A stretch of 64,000 nt of DNA from Flaccisagitta enflata (GCA_965153355.1 OZ231126.1:37882001-37946000), one strand, 5' to 3'; positions 4,890-63,533 are shown, counted from the stretch's first letter. The notes: generated from the letters alone by a model not told the origin. A program made the numbers and translations.

Positions 4890-5094
<205 letters not shown>

Positions 5095-14425: not shown

Positions 14426-14623
<198 letters not shown>

Positions 14624-23982: not shown

Positions 23983-24915
23983 GACAACCACAATGACGAC
24001 GACGATTTCGGCGACGATAACGACGCCAATGACGACCAAGACGATAATGATGACAACCGGATCTTGGACGATGACGACGCCAATGACAACCAAGACGATA
24101 ATGATGACAACCAGATCTTTGACGATGACGACGCCAATGACGACCAAGATGATAGTCATGATAACCAGATCTTGGACGATGAAGACGCCAATGACAACCA
24201 AGACAATAATGATGACAACCAGATCTTTGACGATGACAAAGCCAATGACGACCCAGACAATAATGATTACAACCGGACCTTTGATGATGACGACGCCAAT
24301 GATGACCAAGACGATAATGATGACAACCAGATCTTTGACGATGACGAAGCCAATGACGACCCAGACAATAATGATTACAACCGGACCTTTGATGATGACG
24401 ACGCCAATGATGACCAAGACGATAATGATGACAACCAGATCTTTGACGATGACGACGCCAATGACGACCGAGACGATAATGATGACAACCGGATCTTTGA
24501 CAATGACGACACCAATGACGACCAAGACGATAATGATGACAACCAGATCTTTGACGATGACGACGCCAATGACGACCAAGACAATTACGATTACGACCAG
24601 ATCTTTGACAATGATGACCAAGACGATAATGATGATGACCAGATCGATGACGATGACGACCAATACGATGATGATGACGACCAGATCTATGATGATGACG
24701 ACCAAGACGATAATGATGATGAGCAAATCGATGACAATGACAATCAAGACAATGATAATGACGACCAGATCTTTGACGATGACGACCAAGACGATAATGA
24801 TGATGACCAGATCTTTGACGATGACGACCAAGACGATAATGATGACAACCAGATCGATGACGATGGAGACCAAGACGATAATAATGACAACCAGATCTAT
24901 AACGATGACCACCAA
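23983..24915 (+). repeat. 54-bp minisatellite (about 11 units, then shorter 39-42-bp units); one frame reads DDDDANDDQDDNDDNQIF repeats
   Basis: GCCAAT recurs at 24025, 24079, 24133, 24187, 24241 and onward (period 54). Confidence 0.9.
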
Positions 24916-24950
24916 GATGTCTCCTTCTACACGCCTTTAGGCGTCTTGGG

Positions 24951-24951
24951 C

Positions 24952-25043
<92 letters not shown>

Positions 25044-25044
25044 C
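24951..25044. repeat. (AAC)n microsatellite
   Basis: Direct reading. Confidence 0.95.
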
Positions 25045-25238
25045 TATGAAGACCAGGACGATAATGGTTGTGTCAGCGTCGGCGTTGTTTTTTTTTTCTT
25101 TTCTTCGACGAGGAGAGAGTCACTTACCAGCTCCATTCCGCAACTCACACCTCAACCAATTCTCCGAGAAAATAAAAGTCACACTCAGATAAACTTCTTT
25201 TTTACTCTCTAAAACTTGTCTTTTAGCGACTCCGGGTT

Positions 25239-30210: not shown

Positions 30211-30440
<230 letters not shown>

Positions 30441-31866: not shown

Positions 31867-33042
31867 TATATATCATGAAAGATTATCCATTCAGTTGTTG
31901 ATAATGGTTTTTCACGCTAGGGCCGCTGCATCAGTATGCGTGGAATCCCTGCTATTGGGATAAAATGAAAAGAGAAATTATGGAGGGAACAAAAAAAAAC
32001 GCGCAAAAATATTGGGAAAGAAAAAAAAAGAGAAAAAATGCAAAAACTGGCATTTAATTCGAATTTTGAAGATTCAGTTCCCCTCCAAAATTCTCGTAGA
32101 TGTGACGTCTGGGTTTTTGTTTGTCTGTCTGACTCTCTGTTTGTTTGTTCGGCTTTTTCTGTCTGTTCCTTTCTTCCTATCAGACACTCAAGATTCTTTA
32201 GCCTTTTTGCAATTCTCCATTCATAGTTTCCAAGGTTATGGAGGCAAAATGAAAAAAAAAGCTTGAAAAGAAGAGAAACAGAATGGCACCATGTCTACGG
32301 AGAAAAAGAATGTAAGAAGTTTGAAGACATTCAATAAAACATCGTCAAGAAACTCAAGTAGTTCGCAAAAACAATTCCGCAGTCCAGTGATGCTACAGGA
32401 GCAAGATCAAGTATTGAAAATCAAACTCGTTTTGAATTAATCTTTTTCCAAATCATGTTGAAAGAGTTCATTTCCGTTCGTCCGTCATTGTGTTGTTTTT
32501 CGTTGGACAAATCCCCCGGCGTACATGTAGAGCCATTGTTACGGGCAACTAACCAGGAAATACAGTAGATCGCGTCTAGACTTGAGATAACGGGGGCATG
32601 CATTGTAGGAAAAAGAATGAAGCTAAGGCACTGATATTTGGAATATAAACTAATAAGATAATATTTCATTGCCCATGATAGTTGGTTACCATGGAAACGC
32701 ATTTTCATGTATTTACTCTAAAATATCAACATTTTGAGGAAATTTTTAAGGGAACATTGTTAAAAACAAGTTTTCTAGAACTTTCCCACAGTATGTGCTG
32801 TCAGAATATCGCTTGTTCAGCGGTTGCTAGGAGTTGTCACACATGGATATGCTCACTAGCTATGGCCAAATGAGCGATATTCTTACAGAACATATTGTGG
32901 GAAAGCTGTGTAGCACATTTGATTTTAAGCAATGTTCTTTAAAAAATCTCTCAAAATATTGATATCTTAGCGAGAATACATGGAAATGTGTTTCCATAGC
33001 AACCGAGTATCATATGAAATAAATCATTCTTTTAATAGTGTA

Positions 33043-33831
33043 TGTGACATTCTTCACATTCCCCACCATATGCAGGCCTAGAAGCGCTCGATCGGACGCA
33101 TTCGACTCCGCGGATCCCGAAGAAGAGGAGGGGCTCTCTCGCCATCGAAAATCCAAGATGGCGTCTGCTCGACTGCAGAGTGGAGGAAATCGAGGAAGAA
33201 GGAGAGAGATCTTCGATCGACGGAGGAAGGGGAGGAACGCGCGCGCGCACCGGAAGCGCTGACTTCCGGTTGAGGATTGATGAACTATATCTCCTCAACC
33301 GCTTAGAGGAGAAAAGACTTCGACCCCTCTATCGAATTCCCACGACGTGACGAATCTATTTATCATTGTTTCATTGCTGCCAAATAATTTCAAATCTCGT
33401 GATGTTTTGATTCATTTTTTGTTATTTCCAGGTTAAGTAAAAGTAGCTTCCCTGACTTTCTTACTGACATTCGATTACACGATCTCAGTTAAAGACTCGA
33501 TTTTTGATGCTTTTTCCCCGACTTCCCTGCCCTGCGCCTAGATTGGAAACCGTTCGACAACATCCGTGTAAGTCCTTGACCTTTTATCATTTTGGCGCCA
33601 TACAAGAGTATCCTTCATTGATGTACAGAGCTTGTCCTAACCTTTTTCCTTTTTCTCTGTCCGTCAGGATTCCACGAATAGACTGATTTCGCGGACAACT
33701 TGACCGCTCATCTCAACAATTCGTTCTAAGCGGGTGTGCGTTCCAAATCATTAGCGCAGCTACGCAGTGGAGTCAGTTCTCGCGATTACGCATCAGGAGC
33801 TTGCTAAGAAACTAGACGCTAAACGATCTCA
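33043..33831 (+). repeat. 5' LTR (789 bp)
   Basis: TGTGACATT...CGATCTCA; by eye identical to 44690-45479 except one T-run indel (~33590) and one G/A substitution (~33606). Confidence 0.97.
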
Positions 33832-33843
33832 ATTCGTGGAATC
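33832..33843 (+). promoter_or_regulatory. Putative primer-binding site of non-tRNA (self-complementary) type, ATTCGTGGAATC
   Basis: Directly abuts the 5' LTR, lacks the leading TGG of tRNA PBSs, and is the exact reverse complement of 33668-33679. Confidence 0.7.
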
Positions 33844-33875
33844 AAAAACCATCAACGATCCACGCAACGTCAACG

Positions 33876-36800
33876 ATGTCGACCGCCAACAACAACGCCA
33901 ACGCCGACGCGATGTCAATGCCGCCACCTTCGCTGCCCAATCAACGCAGAAAAGCCTTTCGGCCAACCGACTGCGTGTCCGTCGTTTCCGACTCATCCGT
34001 CTACGCGGGCGCAATGGACCCCGTGGCTACGACGCTTCGCGGATTACGAAAGGCGCTACGCAACACGCGCAACGCCTACATGTCGGCGTTGAAACAAGCC
34101 GATACCCTCAACGACGATGATATATTGGACTTTTACCAAGATATGGACTGCCTTCGAAAGGAAGTGTGGTTGGCGGCGTGGCGACTTGTCAACCAGACAA
34201 AGACTTACTCACATGCAGAGTCGACCAACAACCCCGACAAAGCGGCGTCACTGTTATCGACGGCCGAAAGCTCATTGACGGAAGTACGGAAACTGTGGGA
34301 CCAATCATGCTTCCACGACAAAAACACTTTTGCGTCGCATTTATTCCTGCCGACCTACCACGACATCCACGACGAGTCACCGGAGACTGGAGCAAAACGC
34401 GCTCTCGAGATGACGATGGGGTCGTCGACGCATTTCGTCCAGTCCCTTTCACGACGACGCAAATCGACGCCGAACACGACCGGCGACGATGGAGACGCGG
34501 GAGAGGACGACTTGCCCGTCGGTACGGAAGCAGCGAATCTCAATGCAGCGGATCAACGTCACAACGCGCCGCCCCATACGCCAGGCGCGATAGAAGACGC
34601 CGAGCAGATACGTATAAACTTTGAACCTCCGACGCCGGTGACGCCGGCGAGGTCGCGCTTCTTGTCGGCCAGACGACGCGATGGAAACGTCATGGCCGAA
34701 CGACGACGCCGACCTCCCTCCAGGCGCCGTTGGCGGCGCCCCTCCCACACAAGATCTTCTCAACATGCTACAGCAGTCGATTGTCGACGGCGACAAAAAC
34801 GCTCAAGGCGACGCGATGGTGCACGTCGTCCAACGTCTTGTCAACGACGTCAACCAAGTTCGACGCTCGGTGGCGAGAGAAGCACGCGCAAATACGCGAT
34901 TCCGTCTCAGCTCGCAGTCTGTATCTCAACAACGCGAAGAGAACGCCCGGCAGTTGACGGCAAACATCGCATTAGACGCAGCCGTTACTGCCCGGACAGA
35001 CGCGGTCACGGCCGGAATTGACGAGAGGAAAAGAAGGGAGGAGGAGGAGAGGAGGAAGAAAGAGAAGGAGGAGGAGGAGGAAAGACAACGCATCCACGCT
35101 GAAGAAGTGAGAAGGAAGGCAGAGGAGACGAGAAAGGAGCAGGAGGAGAAAAGGAGGACGAACTTGAAAAACAAGATCGCACAGGAGAAAAGAGAGAAAG
35201 AGGAGAGAGAGGAAAAGAAAAGGAAAGAAGCAGAGAGGAAAGCAGAGGAGGAGAGAAGGAAGGCGGTGGCAAAAAGAGACGCGGAAGAAAGAAAGAGGAT
35301 GGAGGAGAAGAAAAGACGCGAAGAAAAGAAAAAGGAGGAAGAAAAGAAAAGGAAAGAGGAGAGGAGGAGAGGAAGAGGAGAGAGGCACAAAAGAAAAGCC
35401 AGCAGAGACAACTACCTTCCAAAACGCCACCCCCAGCCGCACGTGAACATCCTCTCCACGAGCAACTGCGCACGAGACAAGATGCAGCGGAGCAAGAAAG
35501 AACGCGATGGATCACGCGGACGCAATGGCAAGGGTCCAACAATTGATCAGCGACCTCAACCTGGAGGACAGTGTCGTTTTGCAGACACGTGCTCCACCGT
35601 GTAAATCGACGCCGCCATCACCAAGCTCACCCATCATCGTCCGCCAGATCGCGGGTGATCTTCCAGCTCCGCAAGCATCCCGAAATGCACGCGGGAGTCA
35701 GCGGCCCCTGGTCGACGACGTCTTCGATGACGAGGGGTTCGAACGCGTCGACAGACGGAAGTCGAGGAAGACGCCGCCCCCAACGCCGTCGCCTCCTACG
35801 TATCAAAGACGTCAAACCGGAAGTGACTCCGCGCGAAATGGCCTCGCGCATTCGCAGTCCTTCGCCGAGAGGATGAACGCAGCCTCTTTCATCGACAACC
35901 CAATCGCCTACGACGCCCGCGTCAGAGCAAAGGACGTGGGATTGAGGGAAATGCGCGCAGCACGTCCAAGAGAAGCGTATGGATACCTCGAGCCGATCGA
36001 CTATATCATTGCCAAGTCTAAATTCGAAAATGCCGCCTCCAACATCGAGCTAGACGAAATCGACAAAGTAACTGAATTGGCCAATGTCTTCGCGAATCCA
36101 GCGAAGGAAATTATCGACGGTCAACAACTCATCATCAAGGCGCACAACATGCGCCGTGTCTACAGCACCTTGTGGAGACGCCTGGACGAGATGTTCAACA
36201 CGAGCGCCAACCCATTCCAATCGGCCGTCGACAGCATCTGCAGGAAAGGAAAGGTTCCGGAAAACGATATGAGAGCCCATCAATCATTGATTGGCACGTT
36301 GTACAAACTGGAAAACGTCGCAGAATTGCTGAATGTACCTGGAGAGTGTGATCGTGACGTCCACATCCGCCGCATCATCAACGCGAGGGTGCCACACATC
36401 TCGACGGACTATTGGAAAGCGAGCGCGCGTGAACAAGCTCGCCATGGCACGGCTTACGGCTTCCAAGAACTCATCGAGGAGGTGAAGCATTGGGTGTCGT
36501 ACAACAACCTCAAAGAACCAACACGCATGGCGCCAAACCAACGAAGGTTGCAGCGACTGCAGTTGGTCCGGCGACGTTTAAGGAACAGCTCGTCAACTCA
36601 CCTCCGAAGCAGCAACCCAACGACATCTGCAATATTTGTGGAGGTCGTCACAATTCTCATTCGTGTCAACGTTTTGGAAGCCATCCCATCAGCAGAGGAT
36701 CGTGTGAAGAAGTTGGCGGAGAAACGTCTATGCTTTCATTGTTTCTGCCCAAACCATTCGGCGCGCGACTGCAAAGACAAGCCAACATGCTCATCTTGCA

Positions 36801-36997
36801 ATAAGAGACACGCAACTTTGCTGCACGACCGCCAATTCAAGCCAAAAGGGAATGGAGAAGGAATCACGTTCAAGACGCCGAATGCCGCCGCATTAGCCGC
36901 AGCCGCTGCCGCCGCCAAAACCGTTCCTCCAGCGCCCCCAAGCAGCTCGTCGACGGATGACTCTGCATCTGATGAAGGAAGAGTGATGGAGGCGTGA
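33876..36997 (+). CDS. gag: BEL/Pao Gag, about 1040 codons, interrupted by ~5 single-base frameshifts
   Basis: ATG 33876; E/K/R coiled-coil at 35020-35400; helical core with LWRRLDEMF; knuckles CNICGGRHNSHSC, CFHCFCPNHSARDC, CSSCNKRHATLLH (36627-36826), the triple-knuckle pattern of BEL/Pao. Confidence 0.85.
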
Positions 36998-39900
36998 CTC
37001 GCTGCCACCTCCGCGATGAGGACGGTGGTCGCGAGGATGATGTCACGCGACCGATTGTTCCTGTAAAAATCACCAACGCATCGACGGGCCGTTCCACCGT
37101 AGTGTTGGGGATGATTGACAGCGGTGCGGATTGTGACGTTTTATCGCTTCAAATCGTTAACAAATTAGACTTACCAACTGAAAAGATGCTGATGCGCGTG
37201 CATACGGTCAATTGTGAAGTGGTGGAGGAGAAAGTTTTGGCGTCCTTTATCCTTTCATCGATTGACGAGGAATACAACGTCCACATCAGCAACGCACTAA
37301 CGGGAGAGTTATTGACGGGTGAAGCTGATATTGCTCCATGCCAACGCGACTTCACAAATCAATCTCATCTTCGCGATATTCCATTTCCAAAAGCAAATGG
37401 TCCTGTCCAATTGATCATCGGCGCCGCCCATTACGACGCGACGATGCCTGTGGAGGCAAGAAGAGGTCCATCAGGATCTTTGACAGCCTTCAGATGCGGT
37501 TTTGGATGGACTGTAGCAGGGAAGAGTGGACGAAGATCAGATGATACCGCTGTCATTAACGCAATCCACGTGGATAACGTCGCATTGAGCAAATCTCTCG
37601 ACCGCATGTTCTATCACGACTTCGCCATTGTGTCGGAGGAAGAAATGGGCCAGTCTGAAGAGAATCGTCGCGCGGTGAAGCGGGTGATGGAGACGATATA
37701 CTTCGACGAGAAACTCCAAAAATACGTCGTGGGACTTCCATGGCGCTATGACAAGGAGAAGATCATCGAGATTATCAAGTCTGTCAACGCACGCGCGATG
37801 ACGATTAAGAGGACAAAAAGTCTCCGATACAAACTCTCAAATAATCATGACCTCCGCGATCGCGTCTTCAAAGAAATGGACAAATTTGTGGATACGGGCG
37901 TGGCGATTGAGATTGATCCGACGAATGACGACGCAAGCATCTCATCGCCCCACTGGTACTTACCCATCCATGTGGTGGAGGAAAGAAATAAAACGCGGAT
38001 TTGTCACGATGGACGCGCGGAGACTGGCGGCATTTGCCTCAATGAACTACTGATTGGAGGTCCGAATATCATGAACGTCTTGACTGAAGTTCTTATGAAA
38101 TTTCGCCTTTATAAAATCGGTCTGATGACTGATATAAAGGCGTTCTTTCATAATGTCCGCGTCCATCCTGAGGACGCGGACACGTTCAGATATATGTGGT
38201 TCACTGACAAAAGCATGAGAGAGGCAGTCGTGATGCTCTTCTTGGCGCACATTTTTGGATCTGTGTCATCGAGTCTCGTCACCAGCTATGTTTTACGCCA
38301 TCACGCGGAGAAGATCAAGCCCGACTTCCCGAAAACGTCTACGAAATGTTGAGGCATGCCTTCTACGTTGATGACGGCTCTGGTGGTGCGGATTCAGTCG
38401 ACTAAGCACTGCAGTTGAAGCAGGATCTCATCGCCGCCATGAAGAGCGGCGGATTTACTTTGACTAAGTGGAAGTTTAACGCGGTGGAGGTGATGGACGA
38501 GATCCAATGTCGCGGTCACTTGAGCGCCCAACTTGAGGAGCCGACGAAGGTCTTGGGAGTCCAATGGTTGCCGTCGACGGACTGCTTCATCTTCAGATGC
38601 GATCCAGAAGCATGCAAGAGGGTGGCAACGACTCCTCGCGAATTGGTCTCCATGCAAGCCGACAACTATGATCCACTGGGATTCACAGCGCCCCGCGCCC
38701 TTGAAGGGAGGAGGTGTCTTCAGTTGACGAGAGCTTCCGAGAAGGGATGGGATTCGACGATGGAGGAGGCGTTAATCAAACGTTTCGCCAAATGGTACTC
38801 TGCGACTCCATTGCTGATCCAAATTGAAATTCCGCGCCACATTGAATGGGGCATTGTGAAGGCCGTTCGACGAGAAGTTCACATCTTCTGCGACGCCGCC
38901 ATCCCTGGTTTGGAGTAGTGGGCTATTGGTTGGTGGAAGATGAGGATGGAACAATCTGCTACCATTTTGTGCGCCTAGGCTCACGTCGTCCCTCTTGATG
39001 CGTCAAAAGCGTCGCACCACAACTCGGTGCCGAGGTTAGAAATGACAGCGGCAGAGAAAGCGGTGAAACTCAAACTTTTCATCAAGAGGACCATTCCAAA
39101 GGTGACCGAGGATATGGTGACGCTCTGGTCGGATTCAGAGGCGGTGCTGAAGATGATTTTCGACCATAAATCTAAACGTCCGAGCTTCTTCGCAAACCGA
39201 CTTTCAAAATCCACAGCGGCTCAAGCGATTCTCAATGGAGGTGGGTTGATTCGGAGAATAACCCCGCTGGACTATTGTTCGCGGGGTATTGACGCCAGCG
39301 ATAAAGAAAAATGGGACATCTTCCATTTCGGTCCGAAGTTTCTCTACCTTCCCAAATCTGAGTGGCCGGTGATGAATATCGCGACGGCGCCGGAGGCGTC
39401 AATCAACGCCGTCGCGACAGAAACGGTGGAGGAAGAGGAAGGAGAGAAGGAGAAGGAAATGTTCGCCTATGCAGTCGCCGCCCGTCGCCAGGAGTGGGTG
39501 GCGAAATTGCGTTTGATCGCCGTGATTGTGAAGTGCGCGCAGCGATGGAGACAGAAGGTGAAGGCAAAAACTAGAGCAGCGGCGACGACGCTGCCAAATC
39601 CATACTCTGTATCTATGGCTGAATTGTACGACGCACAACGCCGCTTGATCAACGCAATCCAGTTCAAACATTTCCATGGAGAATAACTAAGTTGAAGCGG
39701 TGGGAAAAACGACGCCGCTCATCAACGACGCCGGCGCCAAAGTGATCTGTAAGACTCTACGCCATCACAATCCGGTTGTCGACGAGAAAGGAACGATGCG
39801 TGTCGGGAGCAGACTTGTGAATGCGGATATTGGCCATGATGAAAAATACCCGATGATTCTCCCGTCGAAAGATCCAAACGTCGCTTCTCTGATTCGCCAT

Positions 39901-41002
39901 GTCCATCATCAGGATCTTCACGCAGGCCCAAAACACGTCTTGTGCCAACTGCGACGCTTTGTGTGGATTCTTCGAGGTCTCCAGGCGGTAAAAACAGTCA
40001 TCCACCATTGCGTTACGTGCCAAAGGAACTTCAAAGATCCTATGAAGCAGCAGATGGCGCCTCTTCCTCAACGTCGGCTCATTCCAACGGCGCCTTTCGA
40101 GGAGGTGGGACTCGACTGCATGGGTCACTTCCTGGTGAAACTGAACGGAAGGGCGGATCATAAGGTCTGGGCAGTGGTGTTTACCTGCATGGTTTCGAGG
40201 GCGGTGCATGTGGAGGTGTTGTTTAAAATGGACACAGAGGCAATGATCAACGCCATCATTAGATTCGCAGCGAGACGGCAAACGTGCGTCGATTCATATC
40301 AGACTGTGGCACCAACCTGGTTGGGGCAAATCGCGTCATGAAGGAGGAGATGCAGTCGTGGAACGCGTCGTCGACAGTGGCTCTGCAGCAGCATGGACTC
40401 CAATGGGACTTCATTCCTCCGGGGACTCCTCATTACGGCGGCGTATGGGAAAGGGTCGTATCCCTTTTCAAAAAACATTTGGCGTCCATTACTTCCGGTC
40501 ACGTGCTCCATTACGACGTCTTCCAAACGGTTGTGATTGAGGTGGAAGGAATTCTCAACCGTCGACCTCTCACGCCTTTGAGCGACGATCCTAGCGATAC
40601 ATCAGCGCTGAGGCCGGTCAACATCTTGCATCCGTCTACGTTCTCACACTCGTCGGCAGCTATTCTTCCTCCAAAGACCGGAAACGACGCCGTGGGAACG
40701 AGATGCCGATGGAGAAACGCACAGGCCCGCGTTGACGCCTTCTGGAAGGTATGGCGCGCCGAATACCTTCAGTTGCTGCACGCAAGGAGCAAATGGACAA
40801 AATCGGAAGTGAATATCAAAAAGATGCATTGGTCATCATCGTTGACGAGACGCTTCATCGGCATCAGTGGTCTTTGGGACGCGTCGTCGAAGTGGAAGGA
40901 TCTGGTGGTCATGTCCGGAAAGCACAGATCCTACGCCCCGACGGCAAGATTGTTCTCAAGGATCGGTCGAAGATCGTCCGATTGGAGCTGGATCCAGATT
41001 AA
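36994..41002 (+). CDS. pol: BEL/Pao Pol (aspartic protease, RT, RNase H, integrase), interrupted by several frameshifts and one in-frame TAA (38403)
   Basis: PR GMIDSGA (D at 37117); RT WYLPIH, KTRICHD, LNELLIGGP, DIKAFFH, FG, YVDD (38364-38375); RNase H HIFCDA, PRLE, WSDS, NPADYCSRG; IN H..H..C..C, GLDCMG, ISDCGTN, GGVWER, FWKVWRAEYL. Confidence 0.93.
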
Positions 41003-41547
41003 AAACGGATAAGTGTGAAGAGAGAGAGAGAAAGTAGACCAGAGAGAAGCACAAGTGTTTCTATTTGTAAAGACTATACATGAAAATGAGGATTTTTTCT
41101 CTCATGATTATTTTTTGGTCTTGTTTACTTTTTCTCAGTCGGTCTGTCTGATATGTCTTTGTGTGTAATGACAGGAGAGAGAGAGGTACATGGTGCCCCA
41201 GTCAGTTGAGAATGTCTGCATGATTGACTGACAATCTAAATTTTGCCATGCCATTTCAATCTTGTATTGACCATATAAAGGCATTTGTTCGTCATTTTCT
41301 TTTCCGTTTTATCCATATCATTGACTGTTGAGTGTGGAGGTCATTTGAGGCGCTGATCGAAGAGTTTTTATTTCTTTGTCTGCGTATACCATTTAATCTT
41401 CCTCAATGTTAATGGATATGTCTTCCTCTTTCCGTTTGGTTACATCTCGAAATCTGAATTTTCTCCAAAAACAGGCGTTTACACTATCTTACGCTAAAAG
41501 CTTCCCCTTGTCGGTATCGTCGCATAACTGTTGCAGAGAGATCCATC

Positions 41548-43875
41548 ATGTCGCAGCAGAACAACCAAGGCACGCCGGACGAGATCCGCGAAGCGAGGAG
41601 GCAGCGAATGGCGCAAGCCCAGGCCGATTTGGTGAGGAGTCATGAGGAGGAGACGAGGAGGATGGAAGAGGAGCGGGCGAGGGTGGAAGAGGAGAAGAGG
41701 AAAGTGGAGGAAGAGAAGAAAGACCCGGAGAAGAAGAGGAGGAGACAGGAGCAGGAGGCCAGGGCAGCGTCCCTCAGAGAACAACGCAGGCTTCGCGGGT
41801 TGCAACAGTCCGTCGTTGGAGGAGCTGATGACGTCATCGACGGGGTCAGCCATCTCTTCAACGACTCGTCTTCCGGCGCGTGGACCGTTACGGACCCTAT
41901 TCCTGCTCGGGCCCTCAACGCGTTCGATGCCAACGCCTTTGCCGACAAGCGCGCCGCCGGTGAAGCGCGTCGTCAAGCCGACGATGCGCTCCAGGCGGCA
42001 AGAAAGGCGAAAAGAGAACAAGCTGCCAACGAAAGCTTCGATACGGCAGTTTCGGGAGTGGAGGCGCTCATGGGGGAGTCAACGTCGGACTCCACCACGG
42101 ACGCCCCCCCGCCGCCACGCGGAGCAGAGGAAGTGGAGCGACAAGATTTGAATGACCCTGACAACTTAGACTTTGACGATGACGATTTACGACGACGACG
42201 ATGATGACGACTACGACTCAGGATGACAGTGAGGGCGATGATATGGACACTAACGAACATGACGGAAGGGGAGAGGGACTTCCCCCCGGGAGGTTGCTCG
42301 ACCCGCTTCTACAGGCCCCCAAGGGGTACTTACTGCTCCTTCTCTTGCTCCCCACCTGCCGCCGCCGCAGACGTCGCAGGCGGTCGTGGAGTCGCCGACG
42401 TTACAAGTAACGCCGGCCGCAGACTCGACCGCGCCGGCGCCGTTTCAAGCATCACCTGACGCGACGCTGGTGATCCCGCCGCACATCAGTGACCTGTCCT
42501 CCATCTCGCAGGAACAAGCTGTCGAATTGGTGAAGATCTACAACGCCCAAGTCGACGCCCTCATCGAGCGGAAGCACACTGCGATATACCACGACACGCA
42601 GCGTCGCTTACGCGCGGAGAGAGATGCTCTTCATCCACAAGCCGAGCGAAGAGCATATGTTCCGACGCAAAGAGTCAGAGACGAATTAGTCGAAGAGGAC
42701 GGAGAGATGGCGACGGTTGAAACACGCGAGACGCTCCAATTGTGCAAGATCATCAACATCAGATCTATTGGAGCAACGGCGGACATGGGAAATGGGACTT
42801 TGAGAGACATTTCCCGCGGAAAAGCCTCAAATCAGAGAAAAAGACGACGTGAAGGAGCCGCTCGTCGGATCGCGGAGGCTATTCGTTCGACCGGAAGTGG
42901 CAGCGATCAGCGTCAGACGCCCGCGACGCAGGATCCTCCACAACATCATCCGAGAGACGATCGACGAGCCAAAGCTGGCGCCAACAATCTACAAATCGAA
43001 GTGAGAGAGAAGAGACGTCGGGTGAGCAGGGGTGGACCGCCGGATGCATCCGCATCGCATCATCGACGGTGATGGATGGTCCCGCGAGATTACCACATGG
43101 TCCTGCTCCCCGGCCTCCTCCTCCTCAACGCCAGCGGTCACGTGACATTTCACCAATCCGTGTCCCAACCCAAACGATTTACGACAACGGATAATCAAGG
43201 TGGCGCTGGGGCAGCCGCAAATCTGCTCCCCCTCCTCCTCCTCCTGTCAACGACCAACAGCGACGAGAGGAGCAAAACGCCAACAAAAAGAAGAGGAATC
43301 GTCGTCCAAAAAGGAAGTCTGGGGATGCGTCGACGTCCAACAGGTCGTCAACGTCGACTGCATCCGCTTCTTCTCCTTCACATCGCCCTCCCCGATCGCC
43401 GGAAGACCTTCTGACCGAGGCGATGTTGGCCGTCGCCATCAAGTTGCCAAGTCATCCTCGGTCAAAGGATATTCAAAAGGTTGTAGACATTCTTCCGGCG
43501 GCATTCTATCCCAACTCATCTCCGATGGATCGCGCGATCTACGCTGCCGATCACGCCGTGGATAGAGCCAGATCGGCGAGGAAGCTCATCGAACAATACA
43601 ACTTTAGGATGAAGGTTGTCGGTGAGCACGACGCGAAAGTTGCTCAGATGGCCCAGCTGCTGTCCGACGCGAAGAAGGAAGCCGACCGCGTCCGCGCGGA
43701 GTTCTCTCAGCCCGATGGACAGATGCCATCGACTTCCGGGACTCAACGCCACTTCGCGTCGTCGAGCAACAACGCGCCACCTTCCGGCAGAAACCCCCCT
43801 CCACGCCACAGTAGGAAAGACGACGCGCCATCCTATCGTGGAGGAAAGGGCGGCAGGGGTAAAGGCCGGAAGTAG
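41548..43875 (+). CDS. Accessory ORF3 of the retrotransposon, unknown function, about 775 codons when ~5-6 frameshifts are bridged (track pieces 41548-42204, 42201-, 42386-43072, 43423-43875)
   Basis: GC-rich coding-like block between two AT-rich spacers; ATG in catcATGt; coiled-coil N-terminus, acidic and Pro-rich linkers, basic clusters, C-terminal RGG tail; no signal peptide or TM segment. Confidence 0.65.
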
Positions 43876-43990
43876 AGGGTCTCGTCGCCATGATCCCGGC
43901 CATCGTCTTCCCACTTCAATCGCGCGTATCATACCGACGTTTCACGTCGTCGCGGAAGACTAGCGGTTGATCATCCAATGGCGACTCGAG

Positions 43991-44997
43991 ATGCTTCCGG
44001 TGACGGACAGGCCGGCCGTCCTCGCTTCTCTAGAGGGCGGTCGGGGGAGGGGGTCCCACCGGGGACCCCCCTGCGACTCTCCCGCGTAAGTGTCGAGGGG
44101 TAGGGGGGGTCTTGAATTGCTCATGAATCAATTGTACCAAATTAGAATATTAAGCGTATGATTTGAGAATGAGAATCAGTTCTAACTCTCCTAATCCGTT
44201 TCTCCATACCCATTCCGGGTGTCAGGGACGTACGTGCTGGAGTGATGGACAATCCTAACGGGGCGTTGGTACGTAGTATAGTATAGTTTATACACTAGTA
44301 TAGGCCACTTAGCGTATAGTCTAATTATTTATTTCAGTCCATCATTCCCGTGGATCTAGTATCGTTACCTTTTTTCTTGTTTTAGCATGAAGACTGGATG
44401 CAGAATGGAGCAAGAGGAGCAATTCATAACCAGACCGTAGCGATAGCCCGGACAATCGACGGTGGTAGGTGTTTCTGCTCCTAGAACCCATTTTCTGAAT
44501 CGTCTTATTCGCGCGAGATCCACGATATTTATAATAGCGTCTTTGTAATATTTAAAAATTTTGTTTTTGAGATGAGCCCCGGATGTTGTCATAGCTTGTA
44601 AATTTTTAAAATGAACGGTATTCCCTGACAAGAAACTAGTTAGATACGAGATTTGAAATTTTTTTGGCAAATATTTCAAATGGGGGGACTGTGACATTCT
44701 TCACATTCCCCACCATATGCAGGCCTAGAAGCGCTCGATCGGACGCATTCGACTCCGCGGATCCCGAAGAAGAGGAGGGGCTCTCTCGCCATCGAAAATC
44801 CAAGATGGCGTCTGCTCGACTGCAGAGTGGAGGAAATCGAGGAAGAAGGAGAGAGATCTTCGATCGACGGAGGAAGGGGAGGAACGCGCGCGCGCACCGG
44901 AAGCGCTGACTTCCGGTTGAGGATTGATGAACTATATCTCCTCAACCGCTTAGAGGAGAAAAGACTTCGACCCCTCTATCGAATTCCCACGACGTGA
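43991..44997 (+). CDS. Hypothetical spliced ORF4: exons 43991-44085, 44226-44268, 44386-44464, 44723-44997 (163 aa, or 125 aa from ATG 44245); last exon lies in U3 of the 3' LTR
   Basis: Three GT-AG introns (GTAAGT..CTAAC..CAG; GTACGT..TTTTAG; GTAGGT..TGCAG) whose phases keep one frame open to TGA 44995-44997; exons GC-rich, introns AT-rich. Confidence 0.4.
44678..44689 (+). promoter_or_regulatory. Polypurine tract (AAATGGGGGGAC)
   Basis: G-run immediately upstream of the 3' LTR TG; preceded by hairpin ATTTGAAAT(44651)...ATTTCAAAT(44681). Confidence 0.8.
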
Positions 44998-45479
44998 CGA
45001 ATCTATTTATCATTGTTTCATTGCTGCCAAATAATTTCAAATCTCGTGATGTTTTGATTCATTTTTTGTTATTTCCAGGTTAAGTAAAAGTAGCTTCCCT
45101 GACTTTCTTACTGACATTCGATTACACGATCTCAGTTAAAGACTCGATTTTTGATGCTTTTTCCCCGACTTCCCTGCCCTGCGCCTAGATTGGAAACCGT
45201 TCGACAACATCCGTGTAAGTCCTTGACCTTTTATCATTTTTGGCGCCATACAAAAGTATCCTTCATTGATGTACAGAGCTTGTCCTAACCTTTTTCCTTT
45301 TTCTCTGTCCGTCAGGATTCCACGAATAGACTGATTTCGCGGACAACTTGACCGCTCATCTCAACAATTCGTTCTAAGCGGGTGTGCGTTCCAAATCATT
45401 AGCGCAGCTACGCAGTGGAGTCAGTTCTCGCGATTACGCATCAGGAGCTTGCTAAGAAACTAGACGCTAAACGATCTCA
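44690..45479 (+). repeat. 3' LTR (790 bp)
   Basis: Near-identical to the 5' LTR; followed by TSD GTGTA. Confidence 0.97.
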
Positions 45480-46837
45480 GTGTATATTCCAAATATTAGC
45501 CCACTAGCTTCATTTATTCTTCCATAATGCTTGCCCCCGTTATCTCAAGTCTAGATGAGATCTACTGTAGCAAATTCAGATTGTACCGAAGAAGCAATAA
45601 TATTTCTGCGGTTTCAAGTTTCTGGTATTATTGTGTTTTTCTATCCCAATTCATTTTTCGTTTCTTTCCTTCGAAGGAAAGACAGAAATCCAATTATATC
45701 CCACGGAGAATTGCTCCTGCTTGATGCGAAAAATGCACATTGCACAAATGAATTTGGCAAATTCCTTTGCCTTGCATTTTCCTTCAGGCTTCTTTTGCTT
45801 CCTTCTTTTTTTCTGTTTCTTTTTCTTTTTCTTTTTTCTTTGTGTTTTTTTTTTTCATGATTCTGCTTTTTATCATGTTTTAATCCCCCGTTTCTCCATC
45901 TTTTTTTATCATTCCATTGATATTTGATGCCTTCCTCTTCTTATTAAGCTTAAGCTCTCTTGTTATTTTTTCACGTTCTTTGCCATTTCACATCAACGTC
46001 TTCCGGTTTGAAGGTTATTACTAAAGTTTGCAGACATTCAAAAATCAAACAAGCTGACGATAGAAGTTAAACTGGTAGTGATGATAAAACATCACTAACG
46101 AGCCATGCTTCTCTCATAGTTCTCGTTGATATCTAAATTTGTACCTTCCGCTTCCGGATCCATCATCAGATGGGGAGTGGGTGGGGGTCCCTTCTTTATC
46201 CTAGACGCTGTCCCCTTCCACGCATATCAATCTCGCACCAGTCCGCCCCAGAGAAAAAACTCGTTCGCTCCTAGGGTGAGGCTACATCGTCAAACCAATT
46301 ATTTTGATGCTAGTCTACCACTTTCTACATTTAATCTGCCCATCTCCTTCATAACCCTGGAAAGACAGCAACGCAAAGCAAAGAGAAGAAAAGCAAAGAA
46401 AAGAGAAGCAAAGCAAAGCAAAGCATAGAAAAGAGGAGCAAAATAAAGTCAGTTAAAACTGTAACTGAAACAAAGCAAAATGAAGTCAATTAAAACTGAA
46501 ACTGAAACTCTGAAAAAGATAGGGAAAAAACAAGGGGAAAAAAAGAGGGGGGGAAAAGGGAGAAAAAAAAAGAACCGGAGTCATTGTATCTGTAGGTTTT
46601 CTCTCATCAATCAATGCCATCAACGTTTTTTCCTCTCTTTTTTCAAACGCTATCTTTCGGCGAGGGAGCGGAGAAGGGAGGGGGGGGGGTTGGGAAAAGA
46701 GGGGGCAATGGTGATGATTCAGCTCGCGTAGAATATATCCATCATTTTTGGGCAAAGAGACCCAAAACCGACAAAGCTTCATTATTTTTCGTTTTAACGA
46801 AACTCGAGTATCACCGCTTGTCCTCTCTATTTTAAGT

Positions 46838-46946
<109 letters not shown>

Positions 46947-47251
46947 ACGAACTTACTAAGAAAGCTGGAAGTTGTTACCTGCTAAGCAGCGCGCGTTTTA
47001 TTCGTGGCAACACGGAAATGGCATCGGTCAAGAATATCTTTGGCAGCTCGCTTGATTGAGATGTATTCATTTCCGTTATCGCTGTTCTCTGTCACCATCT
47101 CACCTTTACGTCTCTTTCTCTGTCTTTCTATCTGTGTCTGTGTCTATGTCTGTAACTTTGTACGTGCCAGCTTGTCATCCATCTCTGCTTGTCTTTATCT
47201 GTCTTTGCTTTTTTTCTCTGTCCATTACAGTGCTTTTATGTCTCTTGTCGC

Positions 47252-47301
<50 letters not shown>

Positions 47302-48002
47302 CTCCTGTGATATGGTGTTCGACGCGACCACCACGCAAATTCGCATTCGTCGCGAGGAAACCGGCAATTAATCGGCCTATTAATGCGGTTGGGTTCATAC
47401 CCACACTTTCTGTCCGTTTTTCTGTCCGTTCTCCTGTCCGTCTTTTCATCAGTCTGCTTTTCGTCTGTCCGTCTCAGCGTCATTCTCTCTGTAACGTTAC
47501 TGAATGCAAAAGCGATCATCGATTCTTGCGCAGCAGTGTTCTGCCGTCGTGTTTTGCACTCTGCTGTCTTTGTTTGTGGTGTGTGGTCCTGTGTGTTCTC
47601 CGTGGTCTGTGAGTTACTGTGACAGTGGTCTGTGGTCAGTGGTGTCAGAATGATGGGCTAAAAATGGTTTAATATTCAAAGAAAAAAAAAACAAATCTTA
47701 AATCGCTGGAATAACTTTTTTTAAGTGAAACTGACCCCCTTCATCTTTTGTTTGTGTCCGCGAATCGTAAACAATACAAAAAGGAAAAACTGATGATCTT
47801 TATGGCGAAATTTTAACACATTAGATTTAATTCCTATGTCTGATGTATCAGTTCCTCACATCATTTCTCTCTTTTTCCAGGTTTCGCGGCACGTAATAAC
47901 GAGGAGTAAAGGACTCGTACGAAGAAAGAAGGAAAATCTGTGCGACAATCTAAATTAAAAAGAGCGAATGAAGGCAAAAAAAAATGAAATAGATAAATAA
48001 AT

Positions 48003-48050
<48 letters not shown>

Positions 48051-49225
48051 AATGCCAATGACTACTGAATGGGAACAAAAACGAAAAGAAAATTGTGAGA
48101 GAGAGAGAGAAAAAAACATTTAAACGAGATGACCCGAGTTAATCCGCATCCAACTGGGAAACACATCGAAAACGGCGTGATTAGTAACGCCAAAGAACCT
48201 CCGCCTCATCAACGAATCTCCGCCTCATCAACGCACGTCGAATTTTTCCCTTTCTTTTCGTTTTTAGTCGCTTGCTGAGCGACTCCATGAGAGGGTGTTT
48301 CCGTAGTGCTGTCCGTAGGACGACAGGAGGAAGGTTACGCGAAATCAACTGTAAGAGTCTACTGAACTGTAATGCTCCTGCCGACCCACATTGCAGCCCC
48401 GGCCCACTAAAGCATTGCCCCTACCCAGTGCCCACTTACATTTCTATCTCGGCCCACCCGCAAGCGACTCCTCATTGGTGATGTAAACGGCCGTGTTCTT
48501 TGAATACTTTTTTTTTAGATTCATCTACGCATCTTTATGAGGGGCTTTATCCGTCCGTCTATCCATCCGTCTGTCCATTCATTCATCCATTGGTCGGTAC
48601 AATTTGCATGAGCTGAAAAATGGTCAATTGGCAGAGAATGTCTGTTTGTTCGTCATGGGAATGATGGATTATCTAACATCTTGACAAATGTGATAGAAAG
48701 ACGTGGACGCATCTTTGTCCCTTCGAGGTACTTGTTCCTTCTATTTTTCTTTCTTTCGTTGTGTATGACTTGACATCAGTGACGTCAGTGACGTCAGTGA
48801 CGCCGACAGTTGAGTAGAGATTCAATCTACCTCACGCTTACCGTTTGTTTTTTGTCCTTGATTGTCTGTCTCTCCGTCTGTGTTATGTCGTGTGTATCCG
48901 TTTATGTACACATCCTGTTTGGAGAGACATTTGTGAATATGAGATACACGGAAGAAAGTGACTCATAAGACTTCTGCCACGCTGACGCAACAACAGCGTC
49001 ATTTTCCGTTTTGTTGCGTTGCTATTCAATTCATGGCAATCCCACGACGAGGACGGGACGGCATCCAATATGGACTTACAGTCTCTTTTAGTCTTTTTCC
49101 GATTCTGTCTTTTTTCCACTTCTGTCCCTGTTTCTGTCTTTGGTTCTGTCTCTGATTCTGCTTTGTCTCGTTTTGTTTTGTCTCTGTTTCTGTTTTGTCT
49201 CTGTTTCTCTTTTGTCTCTGTTTCT

Positions 49226-49416
<191 letters not shown>

Positions 49417-49423
49417 CTTCCCC

Positions 49424-49840
49424 TTTTTAAGTGCGTCCTCGCACTTCTATAAGAGGTCATGTCCGTTGGTTGGTTGGTCGGTCGGTGGGTTGGTCGGTCG
49501 GTCACGCAAACGTTTGAAAAGTGCAAAACGGCTGATTCAGACGTATTTTTTCATTCCTATCACCTTTTATGCCTTACCACATTCAATTTCATTCATTCAT
49601 TCATTCATTCATTCATTCATTTACTCACTCACTCACTCACTCATTCATTAATTCACTCATTCATTCATTCATTCATTCATTCATTCATTCATTCATTCAT
49701 TCACTCATTCATTTATTCATTCATTCATTCATTCATTCATTCGTTCATTCATTCATTCATTCATTCTTTCATTCATCAAAAACGTTCATTCACAAATTCT
49801 TAATCAAGCGAGCACTTAATGGCCTTTACTTGGCCTTGTT
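49424..49840 (+). mobile_element. HINE-like element (second subfamily) with internal (ATTC)n array
   Basis: TTTTTAAGTGCGTCCTCGCACTT 5' palindrome, (GTTG/GTCG)n, (ATTC)n at 49590-49775, GAGCACTT...TGGCCTTGTT end. Confidence 0.7.
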
Positions 49841-51039
49841 TTTTTCATATCCTCAATATCGTTGCCGTCACGATAACACCAACCAGAACCATTTTGCGAC
49901 GATTCTGCCCCTCTGCCGCAAACTTAACGAACTTCCGATTTTACGCTCGGGCTAGCCCTTAAGACAGCGATTGTTATGCTAAAATTGTCTGGACCGACTG
50001 ATCGATACGGACTTACGGTTTGTCATTAAATCGAGTACACTTTTCATTCCCTGGCTAAGCGACTCCATCTAGGAGGCTGTGTCCGTAGGTACGAAGGCCG
50101 GGAACGCGAAAAGTTGGATGACTTGAAATCGGCTGAAAAGCGGTTTTTGAGCACTACCGCCCCTGCCCAGCCACATTACCGCAGCCGCCCTGCCCCGTAC
50201 TGCCCCTGCCCTTATTACCGCCCCTGTCTAGTGCCCACTCGCAAGCGACACTTATTGGCCGGCCGTGTTTCTGACCTTGTCTACATAAGGACCAGTAAGA
50301 TTTTTCTGAGGTTGGGACGTCCTTAATTTTCTGCAGATTTTGGTTTTTTTTTTCAAAATGTACCACAGTTTTCTTGTAATATTGTATTTCTTTATACTTT
50401 TATTATCAATTTACAAAAAGCAAATATCATACTTATTAATTTGTTTTAAGCTAGATACACAATATATGTGATGTACATATTAAATTATAATCCTCTCTTA
50501 TTCCGAAGTTACGTTCCATATTGAGTATTGAGTATTGAGTATTGAGTATTGAGTATTGTTTAATGAAAATATACTTAAGATTTAAAATCCAGAATAAAAT
50601 TTTCCTTTTACTTGCAGCTTTTTAGGGCTCTTCCTTAAGAAGTCCTCAAATTTTGGCATAATTTCAGCCTTTTTGTTCTTAATCAGAAAAAAAGGAATTG
50701 AGAAGCGAATTGAGACAGAGACAAAGTAAATGAGACAGAGACAGAGACAGAGAATACAAAGAGGAGACAGAGAAAAAATCGTCCGCGCTTCTTCTTTATT
50801 TGATTTAATTTTTCTCCCTGTTATCCGTTTTTGATTTGTTCTATTTAATTCGTTATCTCACTTCCATCCATATTTTTCTCTGCTTCATCTTTTTTCTCTC
50901 TCCTTCTCTTCTTCCATTAGGCGTTCTCTCTCCACTTCTCTACGACTCTCATCTCCCTTCTAGAATTATTTTTCTCTTTCATTTTTTTTCATTTTTTTTC
51001 TTCATTTTTTTCATTTTCTTTCTTGTTTTCTTGTTTTCT

Positions 51040-51044
51040 TGTTT

Positions 51045-51135
<91 letters not shown>

Positions 51136-51139
51136 TTTT

Positions 51140-51203
<64 letters not shown>

Positions 51204-51222
51204 TTTTCTTCTTTTCTTGTCT

Positions 51223-51261
<39 letters not shown>

Positions 51262-51298
51262 ATCTTTCTTTCTTCCCTTCTTTCTTTCTTTCTTTCTG

Positions 51299-51374
<76 letters not shown>

Positions 51375-51400
51375 TCATTCTGTCTTTCTTTCTTTCTTTC
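51040..51400. repeat. (CTTT)n tract
   Basis: Direct reading. Confidence 0.95.
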
Positions 51401-51538
51401 TCTCTTTCTGTCCTTGTACATCTAAAAGAGGATTTTGTCCGTCGGTCAGTGTCTTGTCATGTCTCATTTATACACTCCCCAATCCCCATCCACCTTCTTC
51501 CGCTTAGTTTGTTGATTCATTCATATTAATTTTTTTTA

Positions 51539-51641
<103 letters not shown>

Positions 51642-52617
51642 TAGTTGTGGGTGATTTTTTTTCTCGACAAGAACCAATTTCAGTCTTGTTATCCTACCAT
51701 TATTCTATCAAGTTCAACTACTAACTATTAAGTAAATGGTGACGCATCGGTTTCACTGCCGCTCTTTTGTCATCAATTTTCTCAAGCAGCTGAGTTCGTC
51801 CGCTCTCCATCCATTCGTTACATCCATTTCCGCATTCATTCGTTATTTCCATTTCCGCATTCTACGTTATTTCTATTCATGCATCCATTTGTTACTCCCG
51901 ATTCTGAAAACATTTTTCATTATGCACTATTTTTCTATATACGACCAATCTGAAATGGAGAGAGGAAAAGACGACGATGATAATTGAACCAAATTACACG
52001 CCATTCTACCATTATTTTTTTCACGTAAGAATAGAAGGGCTGTAATATGTCCGCTTTATTCATTATCAACATATCACTTATTTTTCGTCAGCGACTTATG
52101 TCCGCTCAATTCATTATCACTTGTTTTGTGTCATTTGCTGTGATATGTCCGCTCAACTTATTATTAGGAACATTTGCACGGCAGATTGTGGAGTGATCAG
52201 GTTGAGAAAAAGTTGACTGATTTTTTAAACGAGCGAACAGACTATGAAAATATGATAAAAAAATGAATAATTAATCATGTTGCTTGTCCAGCATCATGTA
52301 GAAAGGGCCCATAGAGTCAGACTGTCATTTTTCAGCGAGTAAAAATAAGTGAGGTTTAGAGAAATGAGACTTACTGTGAAATAAGATACTTTTGCGCCTG
52401 TAAAAAGGCCTGTACGCCTCTGTACTCACAGGGACATATAGTTTTGACCTTGCTGATTCTAAATCTGGTTTTACTTTTTTGCCGATTTCATCCGAGGCAA
52501 CGCGATAAAAATAAGAAGACGAAGCATCTCTTAAAAAGTGCAAACCAAAACAGCGTCATGGAAATTAAACAGTTCGTGGTTTGCGCTCGTATATTTTTTT
52601 TTGTCTCCAATTTTATC

Positions 52618-52767
52618 TTTTTAGGTGCGCCACAGCACCTCTATGAGAGGCTCTGTCTGTTGGTCGGTCAGTTGGTCCGTTGGTCGGTAACGCTCGAGTT
52701 GAAAATATCAAGAAACAGTCAAAATCACCGAAAATGGATCCTTATCATCGTTATAACATCGTCATCG

Positions 52768-52844
<77 letters not shown>

Positions 52845-53722
52845 GTCATCGTTGTCGTCGTCGTCATCGTCGTCGTCGTTCTCGTCTTCAACGTTGTCTC
52901 CGTCGTTGTCGTTATCATTGATTCGTTGTCATTATTCTCATTTTTAGGTGCGCCTTAGCACCTCTACAACTAGCTCTGTCTGTCGGTTGGTCGGTTGGTT
53001 GGTTGGTCGGTCACGCTCGAGTTGAAAATCTCGAATAGAAGAAAAAAATCACTGGAAATGATTCAGAAATATGCTAGGATGATTTTTAGATGCGGCATAG
53101 TACCTCTAAAAGAAGCTCTGTCCGTCCGTCCATCCGTTGGTCACGCTCGAATGAAAAATCGCTAAAAATGTTTGAAATCAATAGAAAACTCATATCGTTC
53201 GTCATTGATGATACTCGTAATTTCATACACTAATATAATCAGCTACGGTTAGGTCTGATAGAGCTGGTGATAGGTCTGGTGATAGGTCGGATAGAGCTGG
53301 GGATAGGTCTGATAGAGCTGGGGATAGGTCTGATAGAGCTGGGGATAGGTCTGATAGAGCTGGTGATAGGTCTGATAGAGCTGGTGATAGGTCTGATAGA
53401 GCTGGTGATAGGTCTGATAGAGCTCGGGAAAGGTCTGATAGAGCTCGGGAAAGGTCTGATAGAGCTCGGGAAAGGTCTGATAGAGCTCGGGAAAGGTGTG
53501 ATAGAGCTCGGGATAGGCCTGATAGAGCTAGGAATGGTCTGATTGAGCTAGGGATAGATCCGATGGAGCTAGGGATAGCTAAGGATGAATAACGCCCGGC
53601 GTGATAGGTCTGATAGAGCTAGGAAAGGTCTGATAGAGCTAGGGATAGGTCTGATGGAGCTAGGGATAGCTATGAATTAATAACGCTCGGTGCACCGTCT
53701 TGGCCCGTGTATCCGGCCTTTT
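52618..53722 (+). mobile_element. Composite of three head-to-tail HINE-like 5' modules ending in one 3' end; contains (CAT)n and a 21-bp array (GGTCTGATAGAGCTGGGGATA)
   Basis: TTTTAGGTGCGCC..GCACCTCTA at ~52618 and ~52941, TTTTAGATGCGG at ~53084; array at 53250-53690; GGCCCGTGTATCCGGCCTTTT end. Confidence 0.7.
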
Positions 53723-54596: not shown

Positions 54597-54602
54597 CCAC
54601 TA

Positions 54603-54656
<54 letters not shown>

Positions 54657-58624: not shown

Positions 58625-58832
<208 letters not shown>

Positions 58833-61911: not shown

Positions 61912-62236
<325 letters not shown>

Positions 62237-63455: not shown

Positions 63456-63533
<78 letters not shown>

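Follow-up and report, generated by a model that had tools for sequence, protein, structure and literature searches.

A recently inserted BEL/Pao retrotransposon of Flaccisagitta enflata with broken reading frames, a self-complementary primer site and a conserved third gene

We analyzed a stretch of 64,000 nucleotides from Flaccisagitta enflata (GCA_965153355.1, OZ231126.1:37882001-37946000; hereafter the window), in which a long terminal repeat (LTR) retrotransposon of 12.4 kb occupies positions 33043-45479 and carries gag, pol and a third open reading frame (ORF3). Coordinates are counted from the first letter of the window, and all features of the element lie on the plus strand. The 5′ LTR (33043-33831, 789 bp) has TG...CA ends, is GC-rich over its first 300 bp and AT-rich from 33350 to 33667, and differs from the 3′ LTR (44690-45479, 790 bp) by one substitution and one 1-nt indel, the latter located in a T-run. 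A 5-bp target-site duplication, GTGTA (33038-33042 and 45480-45484), flanks the LTR pair, and a polypurine tract, AAATGGGGGGAC (44678-44689), is found directly 5′ of the 3′ LTR. The TG...CA termini combined with such a short duplication agree with the BEL/Pao superfamily. No further copy of the element and no solo LTR were found on searching the 64-kb window, which also yielded no tRNA genes and no Rfam families.

The internal region gave Pfam matches, in this order, to Peptidase_A17 (the "Pao peptidase" model, 8.4e-14), Integrase_H2C2 (1.7e-07) and DUF5641 (1.2e-07). The pol gene spans 36998-41002, with its stop codon at 41000-41002, and its domains follow the order protease, reverse transcriptase (RT), RNase H and integrase (PR-RT-RH-IN) with BEL/Pao-specific profile matches, the RNase H region being assigned via the Peptidase_A17 model. 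Other Pao/BEL hallmarks described in PMC554778 were located as well, namely the protease DSG at 37117, the RT motif YVDD at 38364-38375, and the integrase D/D/E residues (40108-40125, 40299-40316 and 40443-40457) with a D-to-E spacing of 49 residues; the H2C2 region of the integrase lies at 39907-40020, and DUF5641 follows the catalytic residues. The RNase H motif reads DAA both in the window and in one relative (P0008), compared with the DAS hallmark of Sinbad, so that the aspartate is retained and the serine replaced. For Pao/BEL Gag proteins, PMC554778 gives a triple Cys-His box of the form CX2CX3-4HX4C, CX2CX2-4HX4-5C and CX2-4CX3HX4H, and all three boxes were identified between 36628 and 36826 (36628-36666 in frame 1, and 36731-36772 and 36788-36826 in frame 2). 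The initial annotation of this locus had described a young BEL/Pao element of 12.4 kb, which is borne out by the near-identical LTRs, the GTGTA duplication, the polypurine tract and the Pol domains: the feature is a BEL/Pao LTR retrotransposon, with boundaries and superfamily confirmed.

Relatives were collected from metagenome protein collections, in which the protease-RT piece had 23 matches, the best of them 87-90% identical. All protein relatives of Pol and ORF3 come from metagenome or "merc" sources, the latter label probably denoting a marine eukaryote transcript catalogue. Four related loci (L001-L004; 1.4-4.3 kb, 36-42% Pol identity), all of which end inside Pol, were obtained by scanning metagenome contigs with an alignment of Pol sequences; no related loci were found in viral contigs (queried with a single protein and with the alignment) or in genome contigs. 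Words sampled from the element were detected in DNA runs assigned to a single labelled organism and in numerous marine metagenomes. The listing of sequencing runs comprised 24 entries across 10 studies, of which 20 contain part of the sequence, 8 contain at least half of the sampled words, and 5 are RNA entries with fractions of 0.10-0.23; this word sampling was not used as evidence of expression, nor of habitat beyond the marine-metagenome labels.

Upstream of pol, gag occupies 33876-36997 (about 1,000-1,040 codons, ending at the TGA at 36995-36997), with a distance of about 3.1 kb from LTR to protease, and includes a stretch at 35023-35322 in which 77% of the residues are K, E or R. The residues flanking the Cys-His boxes match the Gag proteins of L003 (919 aa) and L001 (at least 662 aa, open at the contig end) across the split between frames 1 and 2, and in both relatives a K/E-rich helical block precedes the part that aligns to the C-terminal half of the window Gag. 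Because L003, L001 and the window all have a long Gag with a K/E-rich block, a large Gag is a trait of the clade. At the end of gag, the TGA is followed by CTC (36995-37000), and TGA-CT(A/C) likewise stands in-frame between gag and pol in L001-L004, which means that an in-frame TGA-CTN separates the two genes in 5/5 family members (4/4 related loci plus the window). In the window, a frame change occurs about 30 nt after TGA-CTC. A UGA-CUA context is known to favor readthrough, and gammaretroviruses make Gag-Pol by reading through the stop between gag and pol. With pol in the same frame behind TGA-CTN, stop-codon readthrough is most likely the way in which Gag-Pol would be produced in this family.

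Behind pol, an AT-rich spacer (41003-41547, GC 0.36-0.43) leads to ORF3 (41548-43875), a charged and proline-rich frame of about 775 codons ending in ...RGGKGGRGKGRK, after which comes a 3′ untranslated region (43876-44677). Five proteins are related to ORF3 at 60-90% identity, the range over all ORF3 comparisons with relatives being 57-90%; three of them each cover two of the window ORF3 pieces in a single frame, and two share the tail ...RGGKGGR.KGRK. Because relatives bridge the window pieces in one frame, ORF3 is one gene of about 775 codons in the family, continuous in the relatives and built of conserved blocks joined by linkers that vary. When the C-terminal ORF3 piece was searched, exhaustively and without a profile, against 1.84 billion representatives, six proteins were returned, all at least 61% identical; by this search, the gene is restricted to its family. 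No Pfam match was obtained for ORF3, and no similarity to Gag was observed. A hydrophobic segment was not found in any of seven sequences, for which the maximum 19-residue hydropathy was 0.27-0.81; we considered ORF3 as a candidate Env, and this was ruled out by the absence of a membrane segment, a signal and a viral homologue. Two AlphaFold models had mean pLDDT values of 62 and 52 and were mostly disordered, with long helices only, and the protein has basic clusters along with an RGG-like tail.

The gene resembles the rest of the coding region in composition. Its GC content (0.55-0.62) is that of gag-pol, compared with about 0.4 in the flanks, and gag and ORF3 segments that had not been used in training scored 0.12 bits per codon with the usual codon-position pattern. 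The spacer in front of ORF3 contains an acceptor-like ...AAACAG/G at 41474, and no ATG was found between 41475 and the start of ORF3, an arrangement that fits a spliced or trans-spliced ORF3 message. Production of ORF3 from a subgenomic mRNA, either spliced or internally started, is possible, and we propose it tentatively, by analogy.

As assembled, the copy is not coding-competent for Gag, Pol or ORF3, as its three genes are interrupted by a premature stop and by frame changes at 14 or more places. The frame path in gag is 3>1>2>1>2, with changes near 34620-34700, 35447-35600, 36480-36520 and 36670-36700, the first two of which were placed solely from the ORF map and the codon-usage segmentation. 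In pol the path is 2>1>3>(other)>3>1>3>2, with changes near 37020-37035, 38320-38335, 38900-38910, 38975-38990, 39676-39700, 40260-40290 and 40800-40820; relatives are uninterrupted at all of these positions except 39676-39700, which was deduced from Pfam matches in different frames, and the changes at 38900-38910 and 38975-38990 form a compensating pair. The path in ORF3 is 1>3>2>1, with changes near 42150-42220, 42263-42330 and 43055-43062 recognized by comparison with relatives. Codon-usage segmentation alone gave a coarse frame map that missed short double shifts. Altogether, 10 of the 14 frame changes are bridged by a continuous relative, and the premature TAA in pol (38403-38405) is likewise read through, relatives having a sense codon there. 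The initial annotation had listed an enlarged Gag, a standard Pol and a large accessory ORF3, and each of these descriptions holds for the family but not for this copy: Gag has about 1,000 codons and an extension common to L003 and L001, Pol has the BEL/Pao domains, order and motifs, and ORF3 is a continuous, conserved gene in relatives, whereas here gag is not an open gene, pol is broken in seven places in addition to its premature stop, and ORF3 is split among frames.

Two relatives of the Pol region at 37033-40999 have an unusual structure. In P0012 (555 aa) and P0013 (562 aa), the protease and early RT are joined to the late integrase via a low-complexity stretch, and these proteins look like internally deleted derivatives. 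Their clusters comprise 31 and 18 members, respectively, compared with 1-7 for intact Pol pieces, which suggests multiplication of non-autonomous copies.

The primer-binding-site position, ATTCGTGGAATC (33832-33843), immediately follows the 5′ LTR and does not begin with TGG. It is the perfect reverse complement, over 12 nt, of an LTR-internal segment at 33668-33679 (second copy at 45316-45327) that is preceded immediately on its 5′ side by TCAG, and the match extends to 15 nt (14/15) when one mismatch is allowed. Of 20,000 shuffles of the LTR, 3 attained a match of 12 nt lying no more than 5 nt from the end of the LTR; within the window, the 12-mer is confined to the two LTRs and its complement to 33832. 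The minimum-energy fold of the leader is closed by the 12-mer helix (z -2.3). In the leader of L003, where the sequence differs from that of the window, a 9-bp helix (29-37/176-184) is followed by a 2-nt bulge and then five more pairs, with a similar pairing spacing (a loop of 138 nt, compared with 146 nt in the window), and by our reading the ...ATCTACA that precedes the 3′ arm resembles the window LTR end ...ATCTCA. The self-complementary primer-binding site that had been reported for this element is thus upheld by the 12/12 complement, the shuffles and the recurrence of the pairing in L003. A site abutting the 5′ LTR and complementary to the element's own upstream RNA is the arrangement seen in Tf1, and we consider the chances about even that the element's own RNA primes reverse transcription in the manner of Tf1. 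Membership in the Tf1/sushi chromovirus clade (Ty3/gypsy) was rejected, as Pol matches BEL/Pao-specific models; the element may work like Tf1 without belonging to its clade.

Downstream in the LTR, an 11-nt block, GGAGTCAGTTC (33769-33779), contains a TCAGTT that resembles the initiator consensus and would serve as a candidate alternative transcription start. The block is identical in L003 (45-55), in leaders that are otherwise unalignable, and 27 of 2000 shuffles shared an 11-mer between the window and L003 leaders; L003 also has a second GTCAGTTCT at 209-217. Two candidate transcription starts can therefore be named, TCAG at 33664 and TCAGTT at 33772. If transcription began at the latter, the pairing would have another role, such as cyclization or the supply of a 3′-derived primer.

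The 3′ LTR contains a 100-codon open frame in U3 (44695-44994) that has no ATG and begins right after the TGA at 44692-44694, and the initial annotation had proposed that a spliced ORF4, with an "exon 1" at 43980-44087 in the 3′ untranslated region, reaches into U3. This proposal was not supported by comparison with relatives: among 11 gene calls found with the U3 frame, 8 switch window frames at one or two places, so frame-shifting indels are tolerated in U3, which argues against a protein. The codon score of the U3 frame is 0.06 bits per codon with GC flat by codon position, and that of "exon 1" is -1.12 bits per codon, which is not coding-like. Of the features that would liken the element to complex retroviruses, a conserved accessory gene beside gag and pol was found, in the form of ORF3 only, and a second one, in the form of ORF4 or the U3 frame, was not. 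GTAAGT...CAG-like strings are present in the LTR. For the U3 open frame, for "ORF4" and for the LTR "introns" alike, non-coding promoter sequence is the most likely reading. In one relative, P0036 (a cluster of 11), an ATG inside the polypurine tract starts a frame of 153 aa extending across U3 and the AT-rich part of the LTR; the equivalent frame in the window (44680-44694) is stopped five bases into the LTR.

Several alternative readings of the coding region were weighed. The LTR divergence of two positions predicts, by arithmetic, about 1-2 indels per 10 kb of internal sequence through ordinary decay, and 14 were seen, an excess that implies either an already-defective template or many assembly errors. 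In the latter case, indel-prone long reads over a multi-copy repeat would have produced the frame changes, and the real copy would be intact and possibly active. Consistent with this, the indel density of the LTR pair, one per about 1.6 kb with the single indel in a T-run, is of the same order as the internal density of about 1.4 per kb, and two pairs of close compensating frame changes keep long frames open. Conversely, the premature TAA at 38403-38405 is a substitution rather than an indel, the defective, internally deleted relatives form the larger clusters and therefore evidently derive from defective masters copied in trans, and the labelled organism's own DNA runs contain only 0.56-0.59 of the sampled words. 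We regard assembly error as a serious contender whose chances fall somewhat short of even; probably, the copy is a recent insertion of a BEL/Pao (Belpaoviridae-type) family from a marine planktonic animal, with all of its reading frames lost as assembled and with the family design legible from the copy and its relatives. That ORF3 could be a passenger, either a host gene or part of another element, instead of a BEL/Pao family gene is improbable, even though no relative contig has it beside Pol, the AT-rich spacers on either side resemble host DNA, and LTR elements of bdelloid rotifers capture diverse ORF3s, as described in PMC5408684. The GC content and codon usage of ORF3 match those of gag-pol, and a search around it for the repeats expected at the ends of a nested element found none. 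The six homologues recovered from the 1.84 billion representatives are all closely related and come from the type of metagenome source that also yielded the Pol relatives. Moreover, the gene shares the strand of pol and is placed between it and the polypurine tract.

For the primer site, the competing explanation is that the post-LTR 12-mer is primed by a host RNA, such as an internal tRNA fragment, and that the LTR complement instead serves cyclization, dimerization or packaging, or acts from the 3′ copy in U3. The conserved initiator-like block would suit this explanation, as it lies downstream of the window's 12-mer and, in L003, downstream of the 5′ arm and would leave the complement in U3, and half-tRNA primers are known from Ty1/copia lineages (PMC6317226). 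The site has no TGG at its start, however, and the window offers no tRNA genes for comparison, while the complement abuts the LTR end exactly, like a primer site, and L003 has an equivalent pairing formed by another sequence. We consider this competing explanation rather unlikely, though deserving of weight beside the self-priming reading. Much less probable is a complex retroelement with regulated alternative splicing, LTR introns, separate genomic, ORF3 and ORF4 mRNAs, and an ORF4 spliced into U3. Splice-like strings do occur: GTAAGT stands at 33567 and again, behind an ATG-started frame of 36 codons, at 44088, pyrimidine-rich ...CAG is present at 33667 and at 33431, and sites resembling acceptors lie at 44337 and 44386 besides that at 41474. 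The 100-codon U3 frame and the 153-aa frame of P0036 would also suit such an element, and ORF3s of LTR elements are said in PMC5408684 to be expressed typically from spliced messages. Yet one GTAAGT per 789 bp is expected by chance in about 1/5 of LTRs, the CAG before the 12-mer may equally belong to a TCAG initiator, and the frame shifts in 8 of 11 relatives, the flat codon-position GC of U3, the score of "exon 1" and the TGA that closes the window frame five bases into the LTR all speak against an ORF4. At present, a spliced "complex" retroelement is not what our findings show: from the overall layout of the initial annotation, the BEL/Pao assignment, the large Gag, ORF3 and the self-complementary primer site remain, whereas the standard Pol, which is frame-broken here like the other genes, and the U3/ORF4 gene are not supported.

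The preferred reading of the family, drawn from the copy and its relatives, may be put together as follows. Gag has about 1,000 residues, with a charged coiled-coil N-terminal extension and the triple Cys-His box, and Pol lies in frame behind a single TGA-CTN, so that Gag-Pol would be made by stop-codon readthrough. There is no tRNA-type primer site, and the element's own RNA would prime reverse transcription as in Tf1. The third gene, behind the AT-rich spacer, encodes a soluble, largely disordered and charged protein, which would be translated from a subgenomic mRNA and in our reading would be an accessory protein that binds nucleic acid or associates with the particle. Taken in full, a BEL/Pao clade of marine zooplankton in which priming by its own LTR-derived RNA has replaced tRNA, combined with TGA readthrough and with a third gene that is conserved, is no envelope gene and has a subgenomic mRNA, is a speculative and rather doubtful proposal.

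Several observations count against this design. The TCAGTT block lies 101 nt downstream of the 12-mer, and in L003, too, the 5′ arm is upstream of the block; a start at this block would place the complement in U3, and therefore solely at the 3′ end of the RNA, and the Tf1-type model would fail. No AATAAA was found between 33668 and 33831. The comparison of primer sites covers the leader of one relative, L003, whose LTR end is itself inferred. No convincing conserved stimulatory RNA structure was detected 3′ of the gag TGA (RNAalifold on five sequences, -1.76 kcal/mol, with many broken pairs). ORF3 had no Foldseek match in PDB at E <= 0.001 and no usable match in the Atlas, and the function suggested for its product is read from composition alone. 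Its linkage to Pol is seen in this copy only, as all four related loci end inside Pol. Finally, all that is said on transcription start, poly(A) site, splicing and ORF3 expression is inferred from sequence. The element belongs to a distinctive BEL/Pao family, of which the window has a broken copy, and the TGA-CTN gag-pol junction is newly noticed.

Outside the element, no convincing long open frame, tRNA or Rfam match was found in the flanks (1-33000 and 45500-64000). These are rich in long dinucleotide microsatellites, among them (TC)n (4895-5092, 14428-14617, 49215-49413), (GA)n (30215-30440) and (GT)n (58627-58833), and also contain T/C-rich arrays at 1498-2452 and 51015-51409 and an 86-bp tandem repeat at 61025-61348. 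A tandem array of 54-bp (also 42- and 21-bp) units at 24013-24917 lies within a 417-codon open frame (23959-25209, plus strand) with an Asp/Asn-rich repeat, and could be coding or a minisatellite. Two pairs of inverted repeats, 5757-5943/6566-6752 (89%, 187 bp) and 55903-56133/56649-56879 (84%, 231 bp), have arms 0.5-0.6 kb apart and may represent elements of the foldback or MITE-like kind.

Of the LTR superfamilies, BEL/Pao has been studied least, and according to PMC5029228 the genes for BEL RTs, including five unnamed environmental clades, rank with the most abundant ones in metagenomes of large-size plankton. If our proposal is true, the clade would be the first BEL/Pao lineage to combine self-priming with an accessory gene, and if self-priming is confirmed, each of the three LTR superfamilies would have acquired or retained it, which bears on the evolution of tRNA priming. 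A literature search, with supplementary data outside its scope, found no report of self-priming in BEL/Pao; the element sequences in the supplements of PMC3118150 might bear on this. The conserved, disordered and non-envelope ORF3 is a candidate accessory factor, and the uniform TGA-CTN junction would offer a clean natural set of readthrough contexts. In having a single in-frame stop between gag and pol, TGA-CTA or TGA-CTC in 5/5 members, the family is similar to gammaretroviruses and to the UGA-CUA readthrough context; it differs from gammaretroviruses in that the stop is TGA rather than TAG and in that a conserved downstream stem-loop or pseudoknot was not detected.

Compared with known systems, the closest overall likeness is to Tas, Cer7, Roo and the mosquito BEL elements, which share the Peptidase_A17 and DUF5641 domains, the triple Cys-His box, DSG, YVDD and the PR-RT-RH-IN order as well as a third ORF between pol and the 3′ LTR (PMC554778, PMC13524379, PMC3118150). 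In PMC554778 and PMC13524379, however, the third ORFs of BEL/Pao elements are envelope-like glycoproteins, whereas the present ORF3 has neither a membrane segment nor a signal and is without a viral homologue. At 12.4 kb, the element also exceeds the 4.2-10 kb given in PMC3118150 as usual for BEL/Pao elements, few of which have env, and its Gag is about twice the whole gag-to-protease stretch of the 6.3-kb Sinbad-type element (PMC554778). The ORF3s of bdelloid rotifer LTR elements, including the coiled-coil "CC" type, are similar in being family-specific, located 3′ of pol, non-envelope, and coiled-coil or without assigned function (PMC5408684), but those elements are Ty3/gypsy-like, and the present ORF3 bears no sequence relation to them, as it matches its own family only. 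A self-priming layout is known in Tf1 and Tj1 and is predicted for some plant lineages (PMC4600332, PMC6317226). Like Tf1/sushi, Tj1 and the TAR-lineage Ty1/copia elements, the last of which are predicted to self-prime, the present element has, immediately behind its 5′ LTR, a site that pairs with an upstream segment of its own LTR-derived RNA and lacks a match to a tRNA 3′ end; Tf1/sushi and Tj1 belong to Ty3/gypsy, whereas the present element is a BEL/Pao, in which the complementary segment is placed at the 5′ end of the RNA only putatively.

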